Of a DNA stretch of 64,000 bases, positions 25,385 to 39,065 are shown one piece after another (the first letter of the stretch is position 1; the number at the start of each line of letters is the position of its first letter). The position numbers and the translations under genes were made by a program. The stretch comes from an uncultured Verrucomicrobiae bacterium (GTDB taxonomy: Bacteria; Verrucomicrobiota; Verrucomicrobiia; Chthoniobacterales; JAATET01), in contig CAVRCI010000001.1 of NCBI GenBank assembly GCA_963719495.1, forward strand, positions 224,001-288,000. Reading direction: 5' to 3'. The notes beneath the pieces are model-generated. The model made no database searches and was not told the origin of the DNA. It saw only the letters and a list, made by a program, of their open reading frames with translations.

Positions 25385-25437
25385 CTCCGGACATTTATCC
25401 TATTGACTACGGCCATCTGACCCGCGACGTTCCTTCC

Positions 25438-25842
25438 ATGATCGTCGCCGAACAACCCGCCCGTTACTTCACCCGCGATCGCGAGATCCTCGACCGCATC
25501 GCGGCGATCCGCGAGGGCATGCCCGTCGCCGATCTCGCCAACCTCGCCACCCGCACCGGCCTCCCAATCAGCGCCCTCGCCGAGAGCCTCCGCCTCAACA
25601 CCCGCACCCTCCGCCGCCGCACCGACCGCCTCAACGCCGAAGAGACCGAGAAATTCCTCCGCGTCACCCGCGTTCTCGACCGCGCCGAAGAGCTCATGGA
25701 TCCCGAAGCCGCCCGTCAGTGGCTCACCGAGCCAGCGATCGCCCTCGGTCGCCGCACCCCGATCAGCCTCCTCGACACCGACCTCGGCACCGCCCAGGTC
25801 TTCACCGTCCTCGGCGCCATCGATTGGTGCATGGGCGTATGA
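25438..25842 (+). CDS. Type II antitoxin, Xre/MbcA/ParS family
   Basis: HTH-like N-half, 'ARQWLTEPAIALGRRTPISLLDT..G...V'; overlaps RES gene. Confidence 0.9.
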   Translation: MIVAEQPARYFTRDREILDRIAAIREGMPVADLANLATRTGLPISALAESLRLNTRTLRRRTDRLNAEETEKFLRVTRVLDRAEELMDPEAARQWLTEPAIALGRRTPISLLDTDLGTAQVFTVLGAIDWCMGV

Positions 25843-26303
25843 CGATCTATCGAATCGACCGCGCAACCCGTTCCGACCCGACCGAGTCCTTCTCCGGCCA
25901 AGGCGGCCTCTTCGTGGCCCACCGCTGGAACGAACTCGGAACGCGTATCGTCTACGCGGCCTCGTCCCTCCCGCTCGCCTGCCTGGAAATCCTCGTCAAT
26001 CTCCCCACGCCCCGAACCCTCCCGCCCCTCGTCTACTTCCGCGCCGAGGTCCCCGACCGACTCGTCGAAGACACCCCAAAACTCCCCGCCGACTGGTCGA
26101 GCTTCCCACCCACTCCGGCCACCCAGCGCCTTGGCAGTCAATGGATCACCGGTGCCCGCACCCCCGCCCTCCGCGTCCCCTCAGCGCTCCTCCCCACCAA
26201 CGAACCCGGCAATATCCTCCTGAACCCAAGCCACCCCACGTTCGACCTCTCGTGGGTCGGCGGTCCCTGGCCCCTCCCATTCGACACCCGCCTCCAAAAA
26301 TGA
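25839..26303 (+). CDS. RES-domain toxin (NAD+-consuming, ParT/MbcT-like)
   Basis: 'SGQGG...RWN', 'YAASS..LA.LE', 'LRVPS', 'NILLNPSHP'; ATGA overlap. Confidence 0.92.
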   Translation: MTIYRIDRATRSDPTESFSGQGGLFVAHRWNELGTRIVYAASSLPLACLEILVNLPTPRTLPPLVYFRAEVPDRLVEDTPKLPADWSSFPPTPATQRLGSQWITGARTPALRVPSALLPTNEPGNILLNPSHPTFDLSWVGGPWPLPFDTRLQK

Positions 26304-26713: not shown

Positions 26714-27892
26714 ATGCCCACGCTCAACAAACAATTCCCGCGCCTCCTCCCGACCCCGGTCACCAGAAACCAGACCGCCGCCGACCTCATCGACGGCACG
26801 TTCAAAGCCTACAACGGCGCCCGCCTCGCCGAAGCCTGCCGACTCTTCTCCGACAAAATGCTCGAAGGCGACGGCACCGTCGGCATGTCGCTCACCGGTG
26901 CCCTCACCCCCGCTGGCCTCGGCAAATCCTGCCTCGTCCCGCTGCTCAAAGCCGGCTTCGTCGACTGGATCATCTCGACCGGCGCGAATCTCTACCACGA
27001 CCTCCACTACGGCCTCGGCATGGAACTCTTCGCCGGATCGCCCAACCTCGACGACATCGACCTCCGCCACGCCGGCGTCATCCGGATTTACGACGTCCTT
27101 TTCGATTACGACGTCCTCCTCGACACCGACGCCTTCGTCCGCCAGGTCATTCAAGGCCCCGAATTCCAACGCCCCCTGGGCACCGACGAATTCCACTTCC
27201 TCCTCGGCAAATACGTCCACGAGCGCGAGAAGACCCTCGGCATCTCCGAGCACAGCCTCCTCGCCGCCGCCTACAAATACCGCGTCCCCATCTTCACCAG
27301 CAGCCCCGGCGATTCCTCCATCGGAATGAACGTCGCCGCCATGTCGCTGCGCGATTCCAAGCTCAGCTTCGACGTCAACCGCGACGTCAACCAGACCGCC
27401 GCCATCGTCTACGACGCCAAATCCACCGGCGGCAAATCCAGCGTCTTCATCCTCGGCGGCGGCAGCCCAAAAAATTTCATGCTCCAGACCGAGCCCCAGA
27501 TCCAAGAGGTCATGGGCATCGAGGAGCGCGGCCACGACTACTTCCTCCAGTGCACCGACGCCCGCCCCGACACCGGCGGCCTCAGCGGAGCCACCCCCGG
27601 CGAAGCCGTCAGTTGGGGCAAGATCGACCCCGACTCCCTCCCCGACTGCGTCGTCTGCTACCTCGACAGCACCGTAGCCCTCCCCCTCATCACCTCCTAC
27701 GCCCTCAGCCGAACCAAGCCCCGCAAGCCCAAAAAACTCTACGACCGCCGCGACGCGATGCTCGAAGAGGTCCGCAAACAATACCTCAAAGTCGGCCAAG
27801 TCGACAAAGTCGCCCACCGCACGGACCTCAACAAAAAGAAAAAGCCCGCCCGCAACCTCGCCAAGCGAGCCAGCAGCGTCGGCGTCAAGTAA
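26714..27892 (+). CDS. Deoxyhypusine synthase-like protein (probable homospermidine synthase, SpeY type)
   Basis: [34 protein letters not shown] with catalytic Lys. Confidence 0.88.
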
Positions 27893-27967: not shown

Positions 27968-28840
27968 TCACTTCCCCCCAGCAGGATCGCAGACCTCCCG
28001 CAACGAATCCCCCACCACGTTCAGTGCCAGCAAAGTCGCCGTGAAAAAGAACGCCGGAAACAGCAGCAGCCAAGGGTAGATCTCCATCATCTCCGCCCCC
28101 TCCTTGATCAACGTCCCCCAGGAACTCAGCGGCGGCTGCGCCCCCAGTCCCAAAAAGCTCAAAAACGACTCGAGTAAAATAATCGAAGGCACGTTCAGCG
28201 TCGTGTAAGCGATCACCGGCCCAGCGATGTTCGGCAGGATTCCGCGCAGAAAAATCCGCGCCCGCCCCGCCCCCAGCGCCCGCGAAGCCAGCACGTAATC
28301 CAGCTTCCGCACCGCCATCACCTGCGACCGCACGATCCGCGCCGTCGTCATCCATTCCAGCGCGCCAATCGCCACGAACAGCAGGAAAAAACTCCGCCCG
28401 AACACCACCATCAGCAGGATCACGACCACCGCGAACGGCAGCGCGTAAAGCAGATCCACCACCCGCATCATCGCCGCGTCCACCCGACCGCCCGCGTATC
28501 CCGCCACCCCGCCGTAGATCACCCCGATCACCAACGACACCAGCGCCGCGCACACCCCGACCCCCAGCGAGATCCGTCCGCCCTCCAGCATCCGCGCCAG
28601 CTGATCCCGCCCCAGCACGTCCGTTCCCAACCAGTGATCCCACCGCGGCCCGACCGCCCCCAGTTCCAGGGTCTGCAACTTCGCCGCCTCCGGCAACCAC
28701 CACGGCCCGACGAGACAAGCCACGATCAACACCACCAGAAAACTCACCGACAGCGCAACCGTCGGCTGACGCAATGACCTCGCCCAGCCCGTCCAATTCT
28801 CACGATCCCGCGCCGCTTCCACCGCCACCCCCTCACCCAT
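27968..28840 (-). CDS. oppC: Oligopeptide ABC permease OppC-like
   Basis: HWLGTDVLGRD, ARIVRSQV, EAA-like loop, ESFLSFLGLG. Confidence 0.9.
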   Translation of the reverse strand: MGEGVAVEAARDRENWTGWARSLRQPTVALSVSFLVVLIVACLVGPWWLPEAAKLQTLELGAVGPRWDHWLGTDVLGRDQLARMLEGGRISLGVGVCAALVSLVIGVIYGGVAGYAGGRVDAAMMRVVDLLYALPFAVVVILLMVVFGRSFFLLFVAIGALEWMTTARIVRSQVMAVRKLDYVLASRALGAGRARIFLRGILPNIAGPVIAYTTLNVPSIILLESFLSFLGLGAQPPLSSWGTLIKEGAEMMEIYPWLLLFPAFFFTATLLALNVVGDSLREVCDPAGGK

Positions 28841-29747
28841 GACGCACGCGCGGGTTCAGCCCCGCCTGCGCGAGGTCGGCCAGAAAATTGAAGATCGAGA
28901 TCAGCGCCGCGTAAAAAAGCACCATCCCCAGCACCAGGGTGTAGTCCCGGTTCAGCGAAGCCGTGACGAAAAACCGCCCCAACCCCGGCACCTGAAAGAT
29001 CGACTCCACCACGAACGACCCCGTCAAGATTCCCGCCATCGCGGGCCCGAGATAAGCCACCACCGGCGACACCGCGAGCCGCATCGCGTGCTTCCAGACG
29101 AGCGTTCCCTCGCCGACCCCTTTCGCCCGCCCGCTCCGCACGTAGTTCTTCTTCAACTCCTCGACCAGCCCGCTCCGCATCAACCGCGCGACGTAGGCGA
29201 CGTAAGCCGCCGCCAGCGTGATCGACGGCAGAATCCGGTCCGCCGCGCTCCCCCAACCCGACGAATTCACGACCCCCAGCCAAAGCGCGAAAATCAAAAT
29301 CAGGACCGGCCCCACCACGAACGTCGGCAGACAAACCCCCAACGCCGACACCCCCATCGCCAGCCGATCCTTCCACGATCCCCGTCGAGTCGCCGCCCAG
29401 ATCCCCAGCGGAATCCCCACCCCCATCGCAATTAAGAGCGCCCACAGCCCCAACTCCAGCGACACCGGCAGCGCCTCCAGAATGATCTCGTTCACCGTCC
29501 GCCCCGGATATTTGAACGACGGCCCGAGATCGCCGCGCAGCAGATTCCCGAGGTATTGCCCGTATTGCGTGAGCAGCGGCTGATCCAATCCGTAGTGCGC
29601 CTCCAACTCCGCCAGTACCTCCGGCCGCACCGACCGGTCGTCGTCGAAGGGACCGCCCGGCGCCAGGCGAATGATGAAAAACGTGACCGTTGCCACGCCC
29701 CACAGCACCAGCAACATCGACGCAAAGCGTGCAACGAACATCCTCAT
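28833..29747 (-). CDS. oppB: Oligopeptide ABC permease OppB-like
   Basis: APGGPF, YGLDQP, GDLGPSF, RAKG, GSFVVESIF.VPGLG. Confidence 0.92.
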   Translation of the reverse strand: MRMFVARFASMLLVLWGVATVTFFIIRLAPGGPFDDDRSVRPEVLAELEAHYGLDQPLLTQYGQYLGNLLRGDLGPSFKYPGRTVNEIILEALPVSLELGLWALLIAMGVGIPLGIWAATRRGSWKDRLAMGVSALGVCLPTFVVGPVLILIFALWLGVVNSSGWGSAADRILPSITLAAAYVAYVARLMRSGLVEELKKNYVRSGRAKGVGEGTLVWKHAMRLAVSPVVAYLGPAMAGILTGSFVVESIFQVPGLGRFFVTASLNRDYTLVLGMVLFYAALISIFNFLADLAQAGLNPRVRHG

Positions 29748-29814
29748 GACCGCCATCCACCTTCGACTATCCGTCCCGCGTCGGACGACGCAAATCGCCG
29801 ACCCCACCCGCCGC

Positions 29815-31083
29815 TCACCGCCCGGCCCGCCGCCCGACGACCTCGCCCCGGCTCAGCTTGAGCAGCAGCATCGCGCTCATCTTCGCCCGCTCGGTCAAGC
29901 TCGGGACGAGCATGAACTCCTCGTCGCTGTGCAGATTCGCTCCCACCACGCCCAGACTGTCCAAAGTCGGCAACCCGACCGCCTGCAGCCGATTCCCGTC
30001 GCACGCCCCGCCCGTCGGAGCCCACGAGAGATCGACGCCGAACTCCCCACCGATCTCCGCCATCGCCTCGAGCAGCAGCCGCGTCCCCGCCGTCTCCGGC
30101 TTCGGCGAGCTCGAGAACTGCCCCAGCATTTCCACCCGACACCCGTCCGCTTCGTTGAGCACCCGCACGACCTCCGCCGCCCTCACCCGGAACCAATCCT
30201 CGTCCTCCGCCACCACCGTCCGCACGTTCACCAGACACGACGCCAACGCCGGCACGATGTTCGCCGCGCCGCCGCCCTGGATCTGCCCGACGTTCACCGT
30301 GAGTCCGTCCCGCCTCCCGTTGAGCCCGTCCAGCGCCGACACCAAGTGCGACAACAGACAAATCGCGTTCCGGCCCTTGTCGAAATCCCGCCCCGCGTGC
30401 GCCGCCTTCCCGTGCACGCGAAAGGTGAACGTCCCCGACCCTTTCCGCGCGCTCACCAACCCGCCGTCCGGCATCGAAGGCTCAAACACCAGCGCGACAT
30501 CGTGCCCCTCCGCGTGCCGCACCAACGACGGCTCGCTCCAAATCGACCCGATCTCCTCGTCGGGATTGAGAAAAACCGTCCACCCCAGCCCGCAGTCCGG
30601 CTCCACCATTCGCTCGAACGCTTCCAGCGCCGATAGCATTACCATCAGCCCCCCCTTCATGTCCGCCGTGCCCGGACCACGCAGCGTCTCACTCGTTCGC
30701 TCGGGCAGCTGAAACGGATCATCGGCTCCGAAAACCGTGTCGTAGTGTCCCACGAGCATCACCTGCAGGTCGGCGTCGGGCCGTTTGCGCACGGTCACGA
30801 TCCGCCGACTCCCCGCCGACAGCCGATCCCCCGATTCCTCCGACACCGCCGCCCCCATCTCTTCCTCCGCGACGACGCCTCCGAGCCGGTCGAAGCTCGC
30901 GGTCAATCGCCCGCGCATCGCGGCCAGCCCCGCCTCGTTCCAGCTGCCGGAATTGGTCCCGACCCACTCAGCCAACAGCTCGGCCCGCTCCGGTTCGACG
31001 GCTTCGAGCCGTCGAAGCTCACCAGCAAACACCCGCCCGGATAACGTTTCAGCCGTCGGCTCGGCGAGAGACTGCAACGACAC
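29815..31083 (-). CDS. M20 family amidohydrolase (carboxypeptidase G2/ArgE/DapE-like)
   Basis: GHYDTV, GPGTADMKGG, PDEEIGS, GKAAHAG, GGACDGN, G.NLHSDEE. Confidence 0.9.
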   Translation of the reverse strand: MSLQSLAEPTAETLSGRVFAGELRRLEAVEPERAELLAEWVGTNSGSWNEAGLAAMRGRLTASFDRLGGVVAEEEMGAAVSEESGDRLSAGSRRIVTVRKRPDADLQVMLVGHYDTVFGADDPFQLPERTSETLRGPGTADMKGGLMVMLSALEAFERMVEPDCGLGWTVFLNPDEEIGSIWSEPSLVRHAEGHDVALVFEPSMPDGGLVSARKGSGTFTFRVHGKAAHAGRDFDKGRNAICLLSHLVSALDGLNGRRDGLTVNVGQIQGGGAANIVPALASCLVNVRTVVAEDEDWFRVRAAEVVRVLNEADGCRVEMLGQFSSSPKPETAGTRLLLEAMAEIGGEFGVDLSWAPTGGACDGNRLQAVGLPTLDSLGVVGANLHSDEEFMLVPSLTERAKMSAMLLLKLSRGEVVGRRAGR

Positions 31084-31094
31084 CGCTCGAAACC

Positions 31095-31805
31095 TTAGTT
31101 CCCGCGTTGATCGGCGTTCGCCGGACGATCCGAGTCCTTCAAAAACGCACCGTGCCCGTCGAAGAAGACGTAGACCCGCCCGCCATTCACCGGCGCGTAT
31201 TCCTTGCCGTTCGGGAGTCCATTGTAATTCAGATTGTCGACGTCCGAAATCATCCAGATCTTGCTCAATCCCGAGGCGCTGAATCCGCGAGTCCCCTTCT
31301 CGTAATCCGCCGCAATGATCTGGATCGGATTCTTCGGCGGCGTTGTCGACCGCGACGAAGGGTAGCCGAAAAACCGCGCGGGTTCGGTCGTCGTCCGATT
31401 ATTCAACGCGAGCACGACCATATCCTTACTCACCTCCGCGGTCTTCGGGTTGCTCCCGATCCAGACGTTTTTCCGTTCTGGAATGTAGTCCGCAAGGAGA
31501 CGCCGCAGGTTTTTCTGCTGCTCCGACTCGGGTAGCAGACGCTCGTATTCGGGGGAGCTGATGAACGTCCAAGTCGGCCCAGGCAAGTGTCCGTTGTCGT
31601 TGGCGTACATCAGACACGCACCCGCAATGGTTCTTTGATTACTCAACGAACGCGTGATGTTTGCCGACGTGTTCATCTTGCCCACGACCGGGACCGCGAT
31701 CGCGGCCAGGATCGAGACAATGGACACGACGACCAGAATCTCGATGAGCGTGAAACCCCGGCTTGATGTCTCCACAGTTCGATTCCTTGGTTCGGCGATT
31801 CCCAT
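31095..31805 (-). CDS. Prepilin-type N-terminal cleavage/methylation protein with C-terminal H-X9-DG-like motif
   Basis: G|FTLIEILVVVSIVSILAAIAVP; C-terminal 'NGGRVYVFFDGH'. Confidence 0.9.
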   Translation of the reverse strand: MGIAEPRNRTVETSSRGFTLIEILVVVSIVSILAAIAVPVVGKMNTSANITRSLSNQRTIAGACLMYANDNGHLPGPTWTFISSPEYERLLPESEQQKNLRRLLADYIPERKNVWIGSNPKTAEVSKDMVVLALNNRTTTEPARFFGYPSSRSTTPPKNPIQIIAADYEKGTRGFSASGLSKIWMISDVDNLNYNGLPNGKEYAPVNGGRVYVFFDGHGAFLKDSDRPANADQRGN

Positions 31806-32623
31806 CAGGCAACCGTGATCCTCCGACGCATGACGAAGAATGCCAACAGCCCCAGCAGGCAGAGGGCGACCGTCCCGGGTTCCGGCACTGGCGCGGTCGT
31901 CAGCGTGATCGAGTCGATGTCCACGAAGCCGCCCGTTCCGTCGAAGCGCGTGGCGAGCTGGATCTCGCGGATCAGCAGATTGTCCTCGAACGCCGGATCA
32001 TCGATACTGAGAACCGATCCGATCGCGGTGAAGCCACTGCCATCGTCGAATTCCAACCCGTAAGTCTTGGCGTCCAGATTCACGGTGAGCCGGAAGACGA
32101 TGGGCGACGACAGGGTCAGCCCGAGAATCAGATCATCCGCGCTCGAATTATCGAACCCGGTGTCCGAGAAAGACCCCACTCCCACGTCCGCGCTCCCGAC
32201 GTCGAATTGGAAACCCGCGATGATCACCGCGGCGGGGTCGTCGTTGATGAGCGTAAAGCCCAATCGCGGACTCGACGTGCCGAAGTCCCAGCTACTCACG
32301 GTCACGTCCAGCGTGACGAAGCCGCTTGTGATGTCGGAGCCACCGTTCACCAGCGCGTAGGATCGGATCCCCCCCGTGCCGAAATCAACACCGCCGATCG
32401 TCAAACTCCCGATCCCGTCCGTCGCGACCCCCGTGATGTCGGAATCGAATCCGATTCCGCCGGGTGCGCTGTTGGTCACGCTCGTCAGCCCCGTCCCACT
32501 CGCTTCGTCGAATTGAAAACTGTCGACGACGGTCTGCGCCCGCGCCCCGTGAGTCGCCAGCCCGAGAGCCAGGGTGGCGATACCGAGAATCCCGGCGGCC
32601 ATTCGATTGATTGAATTCTTCAT
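31805..32623 (-). CDS. PEP-CTERM sorting domain surface protein
   Basis: Signal peptide; C-terminal VPEP + TM + RRR. Confidence 0.93.
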   Translation of the reverse strand: MKNSINRMAAGILGIATLALGLATHGARAQTVVDSFQFDEASGTGLTSVTNSAPGGIGFDSDITGVATDGIGSLTIGGVDFGTGGIRSYALVNGGSDITSGFVTLDVTVSSWDFGTSSPRLGFTLINDDPAAVIIAGFQFDVGSADVGVGSFSDTGFDNSSADDLILGLTLSSPIVFRLTVNLDAKTYGLEFDDGSGFTAIGSVLSIDDPAFEDNLLIREIQLATRFDGTGGFVDIDSITLTTAPVPEPGTVALCLLGLLAFFVMRRRITVA

Positions 32624-32718
32624 GATGTGTTGGTTGGTATTTTTTTGTCCCCAGCCCGCGAACGATTGACCCGCCCCCGGTTTTGATGCCGCGAGTCTCG
32701 CCGATCAGCGAGATTCGT

Positions 32719-32740
32719 CCATACGCCGAAGGTCGTATAT
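32719..32740. promoter_or_regulatory. Candidate operator ccATACGccgaaggtCGTATat
   Basis: ATACG-N8-CGTAT dyad between divergent PEP-CTERM and LuxR genes; 19/22 match to 38002-38023. Confidence 0.7.
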
Positions 32741-32782
32741 GGGCGGCTGACAGATCCGACCCTCGTTGCTAGGCTTCCCGCG

Positions 32783-33931
32783 ATGAAGCGCGCGGCGGCA
32801 GCTCACGAGTCCTTCGACCGACTCTACGATCACCTGCTCGCCCTGCACGGGGCGAACGACGTTCGTCCGCTCTGGAAAGCGATGCGCGACCTCCTCCTCG
32901 CCGCCGCCCCCAGCCACCGGGTCACCCTCTTCCTCGGCCACATCGGCATGGGCGACGCCCGCATGGTCTTCACCGACCCGCCCATCGAGAACGCCGCCAA
33001 ATGGTACGCCGACCGCGGCAAAGACAGTCCCTTCAACGGCTTCATCATCAAAAACCGGAAGCTCAAGCACTACCTGTTCAGCGACATTCTCCCGCCGCGC
33101 GCCGAGTTCCTCAAAACCCCTTTCGCCCGCCGCGTCGCGAAAGCCGAAGGCTGGGACAAGGGCGCCTCCTTCCTCTTCTGGGACAAAACCGGCGTGAAGG
33201 CGATGTTCAGCCTCTACCGATCCGCCCGCCAACCCGAGTTCACCGAAGGTGAGATCGCCCTCCTCCGTCGGCTCTACCCCTTCCTCGAGATCGCCATCGA
33301 CCGCGTCGCGCACACCCAAAGCGAACGCCAACACCGCCGCGGCCTCGAGGACTTCAACAAACGCATTCCCATCGGCCTCATCCTCCTCGACTGGGAACTC
33401 CGCCCACTCTTCGCCAACGAGGAAGCCCAGCAAAAGTGCCTCCTCTGGCAGCAGGGCTCGGACGATTCCCGCGCCTTCAATGCCCGGGAAGTGTTCGCCG
33501 TCCCCGACGAACTCGTCTCCGCCTGCGAGCAAGTGAAAGACCGCTTCATCGTCGAGGCGATGAAAGCCAGCCCCGACGCCGACTCCGTCCAATCCAGCGT
33601 CATGCACCCGACCGTCCCCGGCCTCAAAGCCACCGTCTCGATGGTCAGCCGCGCCGCCTCCAGCATCGCAAAACCCCGCCTCCTCATCCTCATCGAACAC
33701 CGCGCGACCTCCGCCGAACTCCGCGGCCGCGACGATGCCAAGGTCGCCCTCCTCGCCCGGCTCACGCCCTCGGAGAAGGAACTCGTCGAACACGTCTGCC
33801 GCGGCCTCAGCAACCAGGAACTCGCCGACCACCTCCACAAAAGCATCCTCACCGTGAAGACGCAGCTCACCAGCATCTTCCAGAAACTCAACGTCCCCAA
33901 CCGGGGCCGCCTCATCTCGCTGCTCAAATAA
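32783..33931 (+). CDS. LuxR-type C-terminal HTH transcriptional regulator with N-terminal sensor domains
   Basis: 'LTPSEKELVEHVCRGLSNQELA..L.KSILTVKTQLTSIFQKLNV.NR'; no receiver domain. Confidence 0.9.
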   Translation: MKRAAAAHESFDRLYDHLLALHGANDVRPLWKAMRDLLLAAAPSHRVTLFLGHIGMGDARMVFTDPPIENAAKWYADRGKDSPFNGFIIKNRKLKHYLFSDILPPRAEFLKTPFARRVAKAEGWDKGASFLFWDKTGVKAMFSLYRSARQPEFTEGEIALLRRLYPFLEIAIDRVAHTQSERQHRRGLEDFNKRIPIGLILLDWELRPLFANEEAQQKCLLWQQGSDDSRAFNAREVFAVPDELVSACEQVKDRFIVEAMKASPDADSVQSSVMHPTVPGLKATVSMVSRAASSIAKPRLLILIEHRATSAELRGRDDAKVALLARLTPSEKELVEHVCRGLSNQELADHLHKSILTVKTQLTSIFQKLNVPNRGRLISLLK

Positions 33932-35246
33932 ATTCGAACAACTCCCCGAGCTGCAGGATACCACCCAGCTCGACCAGCGCCCGCCGCGATTCCTCGCCCA
34001 ACGCCGGGTCCGCCAAGTCCGCCGGCCGCAATTCCTCACGGTAATTCCGCGTCACCCAATCGACCAACTCCCCGTCGAGCGCCGGATTGAAAAGCACCCG
34101 CCCACGCACGCGGTTCAACTCCTTTTCAGTCAGAACGACCCGCAGCCGCAGACAAGCCGGCCCGCCCCCGTTCGACATGCTCTGCCGCAAATCCAGGTAG
34201 CGGACTTCCGCCAGCGGGCAAGCCGGATCCGCCACCAACCGCTCGATCAGCGACCGCACGGAATCCGATTCCCGGCATTCCATCGGAGCAATGAGCGCCA
34301 TCCCCGCTTCATCGCGAAGGTCGACGATCTGACCATTGAACAAATAACTCGCCACCGCCTCCTCCAGCGACACCTCCGCGTTCGCCACGACCCGCACCCG
34401 CAAGTCGTCGCACGTCGCCCGCTCGCCAAAGACGGTCCGCAATTCCGTGCACACCGCGTGCGTCCCCTCGAACGCGCTCTCGTGACACAGGAAAAAAGAC
34501 CGGTTGCCCGTCGAGATCACGTCGTTGTGAAAAACCCCAGCGCCGATCGCCGAAGCATTCTGCCGCGCCAGGACGACGGTTTCTGGATCCAACCGATGCA
34601 AACGCGCCACGGCCAGACTCGCCTCCCGACCCTGCCGCGCCCCGGCGAGCCCGCCTCCGTGCACGAAAAGATGAATCCCCCGCTCCCCGTGCGCGTCCCC
34701 GTGCCCGCACAGCCTCACGTGATTCGCCGCCCCCTCGTCGCCAAATTCCGCGCACGCCGGCAGCGCGTCGTGAACCACGAAACACTCACCGTCCGCAAAG
34801 ATCGCCCGCAACACCCGGGTCGAAAACTCCGTCTCCAACGACCGATGCAGGTGCGACGCCAGGTTGGCCGGCGTCAGATGCACCCGCCCGTCCGCCGTGT
34901 CCGCCGACGGCGCGACCGTCGCGAGATTCGCCGCCCACATCGCCGATGCCGACGAGGCCGCCGCGAGAACATGAGGGGCAACGTCCGCCGCTTCCGCCGC
35001 CGAGCCAAAACCCAACCGCCGCAGCGCCTCCAGCGACGGCCGCGGGTGCGGCGGCAGCACCGCCTGCCGCACCCCCATCCCGTGCAGCAGCCTCATCTTC
35101 GCCAATCCCTCGAGCGCCGCCGCCCTTGGATGCGAGACCTGCCGCCGATGCGCCCGCGAGGCGTTGTTCCCCGCCGACAACCCCGCGAAATTATGCGTCG
35201 GCCCCGGCAGCCCGTCGAAGTTCACCTCGTAAGACCGCTCGATCAT
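33924..35246 (-). CDS. astB: N-succinylarginine dihydrolase
   Basis: EVNFDGL.GPTHN.AGLS.GN.AS, SSASAMWAAN, GDEGAANH, GVFHNDVI, SMSNGGGPACLRLRV. Confidence 0.95.
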   Translation of the reverse strand: MIERSYEVNFDGLPGPTHNFAGLSAGNNASRAHRRQVSHPRAAALEGLAKMRLLHGMGVRQAVLPPHPRPSLEALRRLGFGSAAEAADVAPHVLAAASSASAMWAANLATVAPSADTADGRVHLTPANLASHLHRSLETEFSTRVLRAIFADGECFVVHDALPACAEFGDEGAANHVRLCGHGDAHGERGIHLFVHGGGLAGARQGREASLAVARLHRLDPETVVLARQNASAIGAGVFHNDVISTGNRSFFLCHESAFEGTHAVCTELRTVFGERATCDDLRVRVVANAEVSLEEAVASYLFNGQIVDLRDEAGMALIAPMECRESDSVRSLIERLVADPACPLAEVRYLDLRQSMSNGGGPACLRLRVVLTEKELNRVRGRVLFNPALDGELVDWVTRNYREELRPADLADPALGEESRRALVELGGILQLGELFEFI

Positions 35247-36256
35247 CGCAACGCCACCCAGCTCACCACGTCGCCCACCCCGACCTCCAGCGCCGCCGCC
35301 GTCGGACCGTCCAACCACACGTCCGCCCCGTCCACCTCGAGCAACCCCGTCGTCACGCGGAAATCCAGCCGCCCGTTCGCCACCATCCATTCGCTCCCGC
35401 CCGCGATCTCCCTCACCCCAGCCAGTCGTCCACACCGCCGCTCCCGCACCGTCCGAACCTCGTCCACCTTCGCCGACAGCAACGGACCACCGTCGAAGAT
35501 ATCCACCCGCTCCCAAAACCGAAATCCCTCCCACTCCAACAAAGACCGCGCCGGCCGCGTTTCCACGTGCACCTGCCCAATGGCCGCCCGCGCGTCGTCC
35601 GGCAACAAAAACGCGTACACCGGATGCTGCGGCATCAGATCCGCGATGAACGTCTTGTTCCCGATCCCGCTCTGAAAATCCGCGGACCGAAAATCCGAAT
35701 TGAAAAAATGCGACCCCACCGCGTTCCAAAACGGCGCGCCCGTCTCCCGGTCCGACACCCCCCGCATCTCCGAGATCACCACCCCCTCGAACCGCTCGCG
35801 AAACGCCGCCAGGAACAAAAACCGCCCCAGCGACAGCAACCGCCCGCGCCCCCCGCCCCGCGACTTCGGCCGCAGATACAGCGAACAAATTTCCGAAGGC
35901 CCGCTGTGCTCCCGCACCAGATGCAGCACCTCGAAGTCCCGCGCCACCGCGAGCGCGTCGTGCCGGTGCGTCTCCCGCCGGATCTCGTAGGTGTAGAACG
36001 GATCGAATCCCCCGACCTTCGCCGCGATCCCCGACACCCCGAGCAACTCCCCCGACCCCGCGTCCTCCAGCCCGAAGAGATAGACCTGATCCCCCGGCCG
36101 CGTCACCCCCCGGCGGAACGCGTGCACCGACTCCGCCACCCGTCCCGCCAGAAAATCCTCGTCGTCCGGCAGGCTCGTCAGCGCGCACGGCTCCCGCCGC
36201 ACCATCTCCACGATCCCCCCCAGATCGCTTTCGCAAACCGGCCTCACGACCCCCAT
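35243..36256 (-). CDS. astA: Arginine N-succinyltransferase
   Basis: LTSLP, EICSLYL, GRLLS.GRFLF, SEMRG, PFW, F.ADLMP.HP.Y, DIFDGGP; overlaps astB start. Confidence 0.93.
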   Translation of the reverse strand: MGVVRPVCESDLGGIVEMVRREPCALTSLPDDEDFLAGRVAESVHAFRRGVTRPGDQVYLFGLEDAGSGELLGVSGIAAKVGGFDPFYTYEIRRETHRHDALAVARDFEVLHLVREHSGPSEICSLYLRPKSRGGGRGRLLSLGRFLFLAAFRERFEGVVISEMRGVSDRETGAPFWNAVGSHFFNSDFRSADFQSGIGNKTFIADLMPQHPVYAFLLPDDARAAIGQVHVETRPARSLLEWEGFRFWERVDIFDGGPLLSAKVDEVRTVRERRCGRLAGVREIAGGSEWMVANGRLDFRVTTGLLEVDGADVWLDGPTAAALEVGVGDVVSWVALR

Positions 36257-36257
36257 T

Positions 36258-36346
36258 GTAGCGGCGCGTCTAGGACCGCCGCTGGCTCCGCGACGATCGA
36301 TCCCCGCCTCCCCGTCCCCCGTCCGGCGGTCACGGACCGCCGCTAC
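36258..36346. repeat. REPIN-like inverted pair of GTAG-foot hairpins (family C)
   Basis: gtagcggcgcgtctaggaccgccg ... cggcggtcacggaccgccgctac; second pair at 41529-41614. Confidence 0.8.
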
Positions 36347-36366
36347 AGCCACGCCCTCCACCGACT

Positions 36367-37968
36367 TCATCGCGCAAACGGCACTGGCACCAGACTCAGC
36401 TGCTTCAGCCGCCGGTCGTTGTAAGGCGTCCCCCGCCACCCCGCGACCGCCGGTTGTTTGAGGATCACCTGCGTCGTGTAGAAAATCGGGATCGCCGGCA
36501 GTTCCCGTAAAAATTCCCGCTCCGCCTCGATAAAAAACTCCGCCCGCTCCCCCGCGTTCCCCTCCGCCTGCGCCTTCGCAATCCACCCGTCGAACGTCGC
36601 GTCGCTCCACCCCGCCTCGTTGAAATGATTCCCCGTCGTCCACGCCCCCAGAAAAAATTGCGGATCCTGAAACGTCGCCGCGTTCCAGCTCCCCCGCGCC
36701 AGGTCGAACCGCCCCGCGTTCTTCGTCGCGATCAGCACGCGCGTCTCCTGACTCGATATCTCGACCTCGATCCCCAGATTCTTCCGCCACATCTCCTGCA
36801 CCACCTCCGCGATCAACCGGTGCGGCGCCCGCCCGTCCACCAGGATCTCCACCGACCTCAGCCCCTTCCCGCCCGGATACCCCGCCTCCGCCAGCAACCG
36901 CCGCCCCTCCGCCACGTCATACCGCAGCACCCGCGGCGGGTCGTAACCCGGCATCCCCGGCGGACTGAACGACTCCGCCGCCCGCTTCCCACCCCGCAGC
37001 ACGTATTTCACCAGCGCCGCCCGGTCAATCGTCAGCGACAACGCCCGCCGCAACCGCACGTCGTCGAACGGCGGCCGCGTCACGTTCACCGTGTAAAAAT
37101 AAATCCCGAAATCCTCCAGCGTCTGGATCCACTCCGGATACTTCTCCTCGTAGAGCGCGATCTTCTGCGGCGGCACCGAACTCGTCAGATGCAGCTGCCC
37201 GCTCCGAAACGCCGATTCCTCGGTCGTCGAATTCTCGATCGGCAAAAACGTCACCCCGTCCAGCGCGACGTTCGCCGCGTCCCAATACTCCGCGTTCTTC
37301 GTCACGATCACGTGCTTGTTCGGCGTCCACTCGCTCAGCCCGAACGGCCCGTTCCCCACCAGGGTCCCCGCCCGCGCCCACCCCGTCCCCCGCTCGTCGA
37401 TCCGCCCATACGCCTCGATGTTCGCCCGCTGCACCGGATAGAATTGCATCAGCGCCGACAGAAAAAACGGCGCGGGTTGCGTCAGCTCCATCTCCACGAT
37501 CCCCGGCTCCGGCGACCGAATCCCCACCTCGCCAAAATCCGTGACCGTCCCCTCCTGATAAGCCGAAGCGTTCCGCACGAACGCCAGAGTGTCCTCCACT
37601 TGATACGACCCCAGCTTCGGCGACAAAATCCGCCGCGCCGAATAGAGAATGTCCTCCGCCGTCAACGGCGACCCGTCGCTCCACCGCGCGTCCTCCCGGA
37701 TGTGAAACCGATACGTCAACCCGTCCGCCGACACCGTCCACCGATCCGCCACCCCCGGAGCCGGTTCCAAGGTCACCGGATCCGCCACCACCAAACCCTC
37801 GAAGAGCGCGCCGATGATCGTCCACTCCGCCGCTCCGCGAACGAGATAAGGGTCCAGCGACTCCGGCTCCGTCGAGTTCCCCTTGATCAGCATTTGCTCC
37901 CCCGCCAAACCCCACGACCCCGCCCCCGCGATCAGCAGAACACCAAGCCATTGCGAAACGAACTTCAT
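36367..37968 (-). CDS. oppA: Peptide ABC substrate-binding protein (family 5, OppA-like)
   Basis: EPESLDP, LFEGL, WSDG.PLTAED, GNGPF, PPFDDVRLRRALS. Confidence 0.92.
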   Translation of the reverse strand: MKFVSQWLGVLLIAGAGSWGLAGEQMLIKGNSTEPESLDPYLVRGAAEWTIIGALFEGLVVADPVTLEPAPGVADRWTVSADGLTYRFHIREDARWSDGSPLTAEDILYSARRILSPKLGSYQVEDTLAFVRNASAYQEGTVTDFGEVGIRSPEPGIVEMELTQPAPFFLSALMQFYPVQRANIEAYGRIDERGTGWARAGTLVGNGPFGLSEWTPNKHVIVTKNAEYWDAANVALDGVTFLPIENSTTEESAFRSGQLHLTSSVPPQKIALYEEKYPEWIQTLEDFGIYFYTVNVTRPPFDDVRLRRALSLTIDRAALVKYVLRGGKRAAESFSPPGMPGYDPPRVLRYDVAEGRRLLAEAGYPGGKGLRSVEILVDGRAPHRLIAEVVQEMWRKNLGIEVEISSQETRVLIATKNAGRFDLARGSWNAATFQDPQFFLGAWTTGNHFNEAGWSDATFDGWIAKAQAEGNAGERAEFFIEAEREFLRELPAIPIFYTTQVILKQPAVAGWRGTPYNDRRLKQLSLVPVPFAR

Positions 37969-38001
37969 CCGCCCCGACCCTACCCGATCCCGAGCCCCCG
38001 C

Positions 38002-38023
38002 CCATACACCGAAGGTCTGATAT
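38002..38023. promoter_or_regulatory. Candidate operator ccatacaccgaaggtctgatat
   Basis: Lies between divergent oppA and cyanophycinase genes; 19/22 match to 32719-32740. Confidence 0.7.
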
Positions 38024-38081
38024 CCCACCCCCACCGCCGAATATCTTCGCTCCCCCCGCACCCCCCGCCAAAGATCATCGC

Positions 38082-39065
38082 GTGAAATCCACTCTCATCC
38101 TCGTGCTCACCACCGGACTCGCCACCATGAACGCTATGACCGCCCGCACCGCCACCTCAACCGAATCGACCGGCCCCGACTACACCCTCTTCGAACTCGG
38201 TAATCCCGACGTCACCACGCCGACCACACCCGGCCTCCTCCTCATGGGCGGCGGCGGCGATGTCGACGAAGCCATCCGGTGGTTCATTCAGCAAGCCGGC
38301 GGCGGCGACATCGTCGTCCTTCGAGCCGGCGGCGGCGACGGCTACCAGGATTACTTCCACTCCGAAATCGGCGGCATCAATTCCGTCACCAGCATCGTCT
38401 TCGATTCCGAAAAACCTTCCTCCGACCCCGCCATCCTCGACCGCGTCGCCAAGGCGGAGGGCATCTTCATCGCCGGCGGCGACCAGGCCCGTTACTACCG
38501 ATTCTGGGCCGAAACCCCCCTCGCCGCCGCCATCACCAAACACCACGCCGACGGCAAACCCCTCGGCGGCACCAGCGCCGGCCTCGCCGTCCTCGGCGGC
38601 CAGTGCTACTCCGCCCGCAACGACACCGTCATCTCCAAGGAAGCCCTCGCCGACCCCTTCGACGACCGCGTCACCCTCGACCCCGGCATGTTCGACATCC
38701 CGATCATCGATCACCTCCTCACCGACTCCCATTTCAGCCAACGCGATCGCCTCGGCCGCCTCGTCACCTTCGTAGGCCGCCTCCGCGCCCAGACCCCGCC
38801 CATCGAGCTCATCGGAGTCGGCGTCGACGAGCGCACCGCCCTCTGCGTCGAAGCCGACGGCACCGCCAAAATCATCAGCCCGGACGAAGGCACCGTCACA
38901 CTGGTCAAGCTCACCACCCCCCCAAAGACCGTCGAACCCCAAAAGCCCCTGGAAGCCGAAGGCATCCAGATCCAAGTCCTCCCCACCGGCACCACCCTCG
39001 ACGTCGAAAGCCTCGACCAGCAATTCGAGAACACCCCCACCCAGACAGAAGCCGACCTGCAATAG
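38082..39065 (+). CDS. Secreted cyanophycinase-family serine peptidase (S51)
   Basis: Signal peptide, LMGGG, IAGGDQ, GGTSAG (Ser), DSHFSQRDRLGRL (His), GVDE (Glu). Confidence 0.85.
   Translation: MKSTLILVLTTGLATMNAMTARTATSTESTGPDYTLFELGNPDVTTPTTPGLLLMGGGGDVDEAIRWFIQQAGGGDIVVLRAGGGDGYQDYFHSEIGGINSVTSIVFDSEKPSSDPAILDRVAKAEGIFIAGGDQARYYRFWAETPLAAAITKHHADGKPLGGTSAGLAVLGGQCYSARNDTVISKEALADPFDDRVTLDPGMFDIPIIDHLLTDSHFSQRDRLGRLVTFVGRLRAQTPPIELIGVGVDERTALCVEADGTAKIISPDEGTVTLVKLTTPPKTVEPQKPLEAEGIQIQVLPTGTTLDVESLDQQFENTPTQTEADLQ

Follow-up and report, generated by a model that had tools for sequence, protein, structure and literature searches.

Why should two divergent intergenic regions of a single locus carry almost the same 22 bp? 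The question is raised by a 64,000-nucleotide stretch of DNA from an uncultured Verrucomicrobiae bacterium (contig CAVRCI010000001.1, positions 224,001 to 288,000; hereafter the window, whose own numbering we use throughout), in which the 22-mers at 32719-32740 (copy A) and 38002-38023 (copy B) agree at 19 of 22 positions on the plus strand. The ATG of a gene for a PEP-CTERM surface protein (32623) is separated from copy A by 95 nt, and the oppA ATG (37968) from copy B by 33 nt. An earlier, sequence-only reading had given exactly these coordinates and this degree of identity, together with distances of about 95 and 33 nt to the starts of two minus-strand operons, which the two ATGs confirm. 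It had also proposed that the motif is the operator of the LuxR-type regulator encoded in between. We arrive at a related answer, to which we assign a probability of about 0.72: both copies would be operators of this adjacent protein, a GAF-PAS-LuxR regulator acting as a ligand-switched activator of a local regulon for the scavenging of cyanophycin and arginine.

The unit that is shared proved to be somewhat smaller than the 22-mer. The ATACG-N8-CGTAT dyad already reported for copy A is present and makes up the outer positions of a palindrome of 18 bp (box A, 32721-32738), with the consensus ATACAACC-WW-GGTTGTAT and the 7-2-7 layout of NarL/LuxR-type sites. Across 82 distinct 18-mers, the two 7-bp arms and the 2-bp spacer read TACAACC-WW-GGTTGTA. 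Box A agrees with this consensus, and the core of copy B (box B, 38004-38021) agrees with it in the left arm and the inner part of the right arm only, since the right arm is degenerate (TGAT for GTAT). The functional unit would be this palindrome and not the oriented 22-mer, with a degenerate right arm in copy B. The arms are conserved by identity, with TA at positions 2 and 17 and CG at positions 7 and 12 in 82/82 distinct 18-mers, which is the behaviour of a DNA site.

The motif is not a dispersed repeat. A degenerate pattern allowing up to 3 mismatches found copies A and B in the window and gave 0 matches in 100 dinucleotide shuffles of it. When both intergenic regions were shuffled (150 trials), the best 22-mer match reached 13 to 17 positions, against the 19 observed. 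The whole genome of the window (4,541,636 bases, 98.6% complete; G000) contains no further 22-mer with at least 19/22 identity to either copy, so that the absence of other copies, noted before from the window, holds for 4.54 Mb, and the concern that the motif might be common genome-wide does not apply. The runner-up matches copy B at 18/22 and is one sequence occurring twice through a 4-kb duplication; this segment of at least 4 kb (C2:1-4000 and C3:9742-13737) is 99% identical between both contigs, with one copy at a contig end. Using a symmetrised matrix built from Opitutales sites (see below), box A ranked first of 4.54 million positions with 16.8 bits, a ranking that is only partly independent given that the matrix seeds were first located by scanning with the window's own motif. 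With a mixed matrix, the third most box-like site of the genome lies at C13:338144, near the start of a minus-strand gene.

Both copies are also kept within the genus. Among 61 genomes searched, a close regulator (84% identity) was found only in a genome of the same genus (G003), which carries the same locus, and a family profile above 260 bits recovered the same two genomes only among 401 of the order. In G003 both copies are conserved at 21/22 positions, including the deviation in the right arm of box B, and the intergenic surroundings have drifted, strongly near copy A and less near copy B. Within the genus, the 22-mer pattern occurs in 2 of 6 genomes, the same two that have the regulator orthologue. 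Lack of conservation in orthologous loci, the other outcome that would have spoken against the proposal, was therefore not what we saw.

To go beyond the genus, we aligned 45 of the 120 listed regulator homologues and with this alignment fetched 88 loci (49 from genomes and 39 from metagenomes), mostly from Opitutales. In a tree of the regulators from loci L040-L088, G003, P0001 and the window, the orthologues and the window protein form one clade (58 rows, support 100/99) apart from 6 paralogues, and long branches meet near the root. A scan of these relatives with the window core first revealed related sites, and 12 of these relatives' sites seeded a matrix that was refined without sequence from the window or G003 and used with a cut of 13 bits. 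It converged on 140 sites (122 non-redundant) in the 88 loci, none of them within 16 mapped gene families, whereas 20 column-shuffled matrices gave 0 to 6 matches. A site is present in 78/88 loci, and 8 of the 10 loci devoid of one are shorter than 4 kb; every one of the divergent gaps between oppA and an S51 (cyanophycinase) gene has it (47/47), in the same slot as box B. These loci are kin, so the counts overstate independence. In five Opitutales genomes, 10 of the 14 sites matching a strict pattern fall in the locus, against a reversed control of 9. The operator proposal is hence supported by a related palindrome that accompanies the orthologues. Seven Opitutaceae loci (L040, L047, L052, L055, L056, L059 and L067) harbor two diverged regulator copies, and next to each there is a separate large gene of receptor-like type that has a box. 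Cultured relatives in which the locus occurs include Pelagicoccus mobilis KCTC 13126 (L087) and Horticoccus 23ND18S-11 (L074). Two records, L045 and L055, are titled Akkermansia and have regulators that branch among Opitutaceae; their labels may be wrong.

We then asked whether the box belongs to this regulator in particular. No box was found upstream of the peptidase gene in G035 and G635, which have the peptidase without a regulator orthologue (best scores -7.4 and -6.4). Scanning 251 genomes of the phylum, where the orthologue is present only in G000, the strict pattern gave 21 matches and its reversed control at least 41; it misses box B and both G003 copies, so this negative is insensitive. 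Regulator paralogues with 26-33% identity were compared at 13 loci (L149-L161) and then at 28 more (L168-L195). L156 (9409) and L152 (9295), whose recognition helix LTIKTQL is similar, have near-identical boxes. The L156 regulator is divergent from hppD, which suggests an aromatic amino acid regulon, and its box has TATGGT at 22 nt. L158 (10577) and L159 (10765), with the helix STVRTHL, present a different 18-bp palindrome before their own gene, with TATGAT or TACAAT at 22 nt. Regarding the 28 further loci, one 18-mer is common to six with a VKKHL helix, and another, at -105 to -142, to five with ETVK/PTVKQ; these 18-mers are the best scores of our matrix, and six or more VKKHL loci have none. 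By sequence comparison, predicted boxes differ from ours in some paralogue clades whose recognition helix is also different. In line with the proposal, the ArgR family (PF01316) was found neither in G000 nor in G003; Pseudomonas ArgR is of the AraC type, and E. coli ArgR is a winged-helix hexamer. We consider it very probable that the box is the site of the neighbouring GAF-PAS-LuxR regulator, that is, its predicted operator.

The position of the boxes relative to predicted promoters would fit activation. The regulator gene in Opitutales is almost always divergent from an open reading frame (ORF) of about 1000 aa, and the five such ORFs that we scanned are TonB-dependent receptors. In 54 of 59 non-redundant sites, TANNNT is found 21-23 nt from the box toward this receptor gene, against 1/59 on the opposite side and a background of 7 in 1298 triplets; in 17 of the 54, an ATG follows within 9 nt. 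If transcription begins 7 nt downstream of the hexamer, as we assume, the box centres would lie at -42.5 to -44.5 from the predicted start sites, the geometry of an activator. NarL activates from 7-2-7 sites at -43.5 or -44.5 (PMC10853779, PMC7419079; here and below, papers are cited for the passages that deal with the point at issue). In the window, a predicted -10 element of oppA-astA-astB, TAGGGT (37977-37982, minus strand), is separated from box B by 21 nt and from the ATG by 8 nt, for a near-leaderless transcript with a putative start site; G003 has the identical hexamer at the same 21 nt, and its oppA ATG follows 7 nt on. Behind box A, a candidate -10 element for the other operon, GAGACT (32694-32699, minus strand), also lies at 21 nt. 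The minus-strand operons, to whose starts the sequence-only reading had related both copies, are the likely main targets, each having a candidate hexamer at the spacing of an activator.

On the plus strand, the predicted promoter of the regulator, CTGACA-N17-TAGGCT (32747-32775), ends 7 nt before its ATG, and its counterpart in G003, CTGACA-N17-GAGTCT, is 8 nt further from box A; given this difference in spacing, the regulator gene is probably not activated from box A. For the cyanophycinase gene, a candidate -10 element, AAAGAT (38070-38075), lies at a distance of 48 nt from box B, and the GTG at 38082 follows 6 nt later. No.ANNNT matches at this offset in G003. In 40 S51/oppA gaps of relatives,.ANNNT clusters 47-49 nt from the box toward the S51 gene (34 matches), and this gene is probably a target as well. 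Hexamers 6-9 nt before the start codons at 32783, 37968 and 38082, and in many related loci, were a recurrent observation; such short distances point to frequent leaderless mRNAs in Verrucomicrobiota, on which our literature search found no paper.

The regulator (32783-33931, plus strand, 382 aa) is composed of a GAF-like domain, a long helix, a PAS-like domain and a LuxR/GerE helix-turn-helix (HTH). In its AlphaFold model (pLDDT 88.4, pTM 0.64), two alpha/beta domains are separated by a helix of 40 residues, and the HTH follows the second. Foldseek matched it to phytochrome sensory modules, DhaR(N), SdiA, RhlR, QscR, CviR and VqsR with low whole-chain TM-scores, and sequence matches in the PDB (VraR, NarL and ComA) were confined to the HTH. 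Across the 45 aligned family members, Pfam recognised GerE (PF00196) in 44, and weakly GAF in 7, PAS_4 in 9 and the autoinducer-binding domain in 3. The latter (PF03472) is absent from the window protein and reaches E 0.026 or weaker in those three members. No receiver domain appears among the Pfam matches of the regulator or its family, and in the model the PAS-like domain intervenes before the HTH, so that there is no direct autoinducer-domain/HTH layout. Residues R46, H53, R78, E122 and R146 of the first domain are invariant in orthologues and mostly different in paralogues; from their invariance we infer that this domain may have a pocket for a charged ligand.

What would such a regulator control? 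Behind box A, on the minus strand, follow the genes for the PEP-CTERM surface protein (31805-32623; PF07589, TIGR02595), a prepilin-type N-terminal methylation protein (31095-31805; PF07963, TIGR02532), an M20 hydrolase of the PRK07338 family (29815-31083; NF005602, 445 bits with a cut-off of 357), and the peptide ABC permeases OppB and OppC (27968-29756; PF00528, with OppB/OppC as best NCBIfam matches below cut-off), all with short or overlapping junctions. Behind box B, also on the minus strand, lie oppA for a peptide-binding protein (36367-37968; PF00496), an astA-type arginine/ornithine succinyltransferase gene (35243-36256; PF04958, with TIGR03243 above and TIGR03244 below cut-off) and astB for N-succinylarginine dihydrolase (33924-35246; PF04996, NF009789 above cut-off). 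Divergent from oppA is the gene for an S51 cyanophycinase-like peptidase with a hydrophobic N-terminus (38082-39065, plus strand), whose best PDB match is the cyanophycinase 3EN0. It keeps the Ser-His-Glu triad and the equivalents of Q101, D172, R178, R180 and R183, pocket residues of cyanophycinase as listed in PMC3235067, with Ser in place of Q173 (Thr in CphE). The pocket motif D-x-HF-xx-R-x-R-xx-R is found in 54 of the 55 S51 genes of related loci. No cyanophycin synthetase scored over cut-off in G000, which fits the scavenging of an external polymer.

Degradation beyond the dipeptide shows gaps. Of astCADBE, G000 has astA and astB; astD remained below cut-off, the AstE family was not found and no astC model was searched. 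Its match to the locus-linked aminotransferase of relatives is weak, and PF01112, TIGR01975 and PF04952 had no match in it, leaving no recognised beta-Asp-Arg dipeptidase. G003 likewise has astA and astB without a recognised astD or astE; neither genome has an IadA or CphZ family gene, and IaaA, searched in G000 only, was not found. The M20 hydrolase is a candidate to fill this gap, possibly as a desuccinylase or a beta-Asp-Arg dipeptidase. Among the 61 relative loci of at least 10 kb, 41 have an M20 homologue, 43 an oppA homologue, 21 an astD, 7 a beta-aspartyl peptidase, 7 a YfcC basic amino acid antiporter and 6 an aminotransferase. Regarding capture, a search of G000 for the TonB-dependent receptor barrel (PF00593) gave no match, and G003 has one, distant from the locus; the PEP-CTERM and prepilin genes (31095-32623) stand in the slot that the receptor gene occupies in relatives. 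PEP-CTERM homologues occur in three Opitutales loci (L055, L061 and L118), two of them with an upstream box, and one of these two with TAAAAT at 23 nt. A pilin 'fishing rod' for uptake has been put forward in Planctomycetota (PMC12078418), and a pilin-like MUL2 locus is described in Akkermansiaceae (PMC13174399); cyanophycinase in acI Actinobacteria is treated in bioRxiv 10.1101/018465. On the chemical side, beta-Asp-Arg is very similar to N2-succinyl-Arg (Sharon et al., PMC9974463). As a more speculative extension, which we hold only tentatively, GAF-PAS-LuxR proteins might be a family of Verrucomicrobiota activators with helix-matched 18-bp boxes, the PEP-CTERM and prepilin proteins may capture cyanophycin, and AstB and the M20 hydrolase may cleave beta-Asp-Arg directly to ammonia, aspartate and ornithine, a proposal made because beta-Asp-Arg is an amino-substituted N-succinyl-arginine.

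Put together, the locus could work as follows. A regulator dimer would bind the palindrome with one arm per HTH, and a breakdown product (beta-Asp-Arg, arginine or N-succinyl-arginine) would occupy the GAF domain. The bound dimer, near -42.5, would recruit sigma70 RNA polymerase to promoters that lack a good -35 element. From this position, box B would drive the near-leaderless oppA-astA-astB mRNA and probably also, from about -69.5, the cyanophycinase gene, while box A would drive the PEP-CTERM/prepilin/M20/oppB/oppC operon. Cyanophycinase would release beta-Asp-Arg for import by Opp, and the M20 hydrolase with AstA and AstB would free the nitrogen, making both halves of the locus one pathway.

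Besides the kinship of the relative loci and the partial independence of the genome ranking, several observations weigh against this scheme. Box B deviates at two near-invariant arm positions and ranks only 43rd in G000 (9.5 bits). Behind box A the -10 candidates are weak: of the consensus, GAGACT and its G003 counterpart GAATCT, at 22 nt, keep only the A and T. In 40 Opitutales S51/oppA gaps,.ANNNT stands 32-34 nt from the box toward oppA (38 matches) and not at 21, that is, about one helical turn further. In the window, astA is preceded by a 110-nt gap (36256-36366) that holds a TACAAT hexamer of its own overlapping the astA ATG; the gap in G003 is only about 20 nt. Two long orthologue loci, L109 and L110, have no site, a clear upstream box was seen in only 4 of the 13 paralogue loci L149-L161 and none in the other nine, and L152 lacks a hexamer at 21-23 nt. 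The S51 gene scores 103.5 bits with TIGR02069, below the cut-off of 126.6. Finally, the G003 regulator (L031:9403-10547) carries a frameshift near codon 332, where the HTH begins, yet its boxes are intact; the frameshift may be an assembly error, the other option being a pseudogene.

One could argue that operator and regulator are right and the sign is wrong, with the protein acting as a repressor, or with box A mainly serving to auto-repress the regulator promoter until a ligand releases it. Box A does end 8 nt before the predicted -35 of the regulator, many paralogues have a box directly upstream of their own gene, and some LuxR solos repress (PMC4338825). Even so, we find this quite unlikely, as the 21-23 nt to a -10 hexamer in 54/59 sites are expected of an activator that touches polymerase, and the spacing between box and regulator promoter differs by 8 nt between G000 and G003. 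A less unlikely alternative, though still an unlikely one, keeps the operator and replaces the signal: another arginine-containing or isoaspartyl peptide, not derived from cyanophycin, would induce the locus. The score of the S51 gene below the cyanophycinase cut-off leaves room for it, as do the lack in G000 of a recognised beta-Asp-Arg dipeptidase or an AstD over cut-off and the weak aminotransferase match. On the other hand, the pocket residues of CphB are kept, with Ser at the Gln173 place where the secreted CphE has Thr, and related loci add astD, beta-aspartyl peptidase and the YfcC antiporter.

The box might also be read by a factor encoded elsewhere, such as a NarL-type response regulator, a nitrogen regulator or an alternative sigma factor, with the neighbouring gene merely travelling along. 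Its TAC arms resemble those of NarL, LuxR/NarL-type HTHs are common, and the strict pattern used on the phylum is insensitive. This is nevertheless improbable: the sites are confined to the locus, the 21 strict matches in 251 genomes are below the reversed control, the peptidase without the regulator has no box (2/2), and the box sequence shifts with the recognition helix of the paralogues. Finally, the motif could have no protein partner and be either an RNA hairpin or what a promoter duplication left behind. The minus strand would carry CUUCGG, copy A folds (z -2.1, plus strand) and identical non-palindromic flanking bases are common to both copies. Copy B is unfolded (z +0.1 and +1.5), the arms are conserved by identity, with positions 5/14 and 6/13 pairing in only 32 and 34 of 82 sites, and the box precedes the predicted -10 elements, which would place it outside the transcripts. 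This last explanation is very improbable.

In order to contextualize the predicted activator, we compared it with known systems. A local LuxR-type activator with palindromic operators is a textbook architecture. The NarL sites of E. coli yeaR and ogt (PMC10853779, PMC7419079) are alike in the LuxR-type HTH, the 7-bp arms starting with TA and the 2-bp spacer, and NarL activates from -43.5/-44.5 and, in an engineered promoter, from -67.5. However, NarL belongs to a two-component system, is phosphorylated and has a global regulon, whereas the window regulator has GAF-like and PAS-like domains, no receiver and a predicted local regulon, and its recognition helix, TVKTQLTS, differs from that of NarL. 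The LuxR solos of the PipR/OryR group (PMC4981722, PMC4338825) are also one-component LuxR-HTH activators. Their genes neighbour those of peptidases and of a peptide ABC transporter, and each adjoining operon is preceded by an inverted repeat, as in the window. The N-terminal fold of our regulator is related to the ligand domains of SdiA, RhlR, QscR and VqsR; unlike PipR and OryR, it has about 380 aa, an extra PAS-like domain and no autoinducer-binding Pfam match, and its predicted targets are cyanophycinase and arginine succinyltransferase (AST) pathway genes. PMC4338825 lists for this class nine invariant TraR residues (W57, Y61, D70, P71, W85, G113, E178, L182 and G188) and a 20-bp lux box with a CT-N12-AG core, which the 18-bp ATAC...GTAT box lacks. 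Since it lacks a receiver domain, the direct autoinducer-domain/HTH layout and a lux-box core, the regulator with its box is a member of neither the NarL nor the PipR family. In Pseudomonas aeruginosa, ArgR with aotJQMOP (PMC9974463) similarly puts an arginine-linked activator beside an ABC transporter and the beta-Asp-Arg pathway, with the AST route next; in contrast, the window regulator is a non-orthologous LuxR-HTH protein, a cyanophycinase is encoded in the locus itself, and searches for the CphZ/AotO family gave no match. The secreted CphE of Pseudomonas (PMC3235067) shares the S51 fold, the GxSxG serine, the His, the Glu, three pocket arginines and a hydroxyl at the Gln173 place, while the predicted enzyme of the window sits within a co-regulated uptake and catabolism locus.

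Our literature searches found no published account of this regulator, its box or a cyanophycin-arginine regulon. For cyanophycin scavenging in Verrucomicrobiota, which are common heterotrophs of lakes and mats where cyanobacteria keep nitrogen as cyanophycin, the present prediction would name a regulator, its DNA site and the genes targeted. If true, it would add a further, non-orthologous control of arginine succinyltransferase genes beside ArgR. The box would also be a handle: the genes behind it (TonB receptors, OppA, the M20 hydrolase, PEP-CTERM and prepilin proteins) become candidates for the pathway, giving access to cyanophycin capture and beta-Asp-Arg cleavage in genomes without IaaA, IadA or CphZ.

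Two features flank the locus beyond oppC. A gene of the deoxyhypusine synthase family (26714-27892; PF01916) is convergent with oppC and 94% identical in G003, and at 25400-26303 there are two small plus-strand ORFs that we take to resemble an antitoxin/RES-domain toxin pair.

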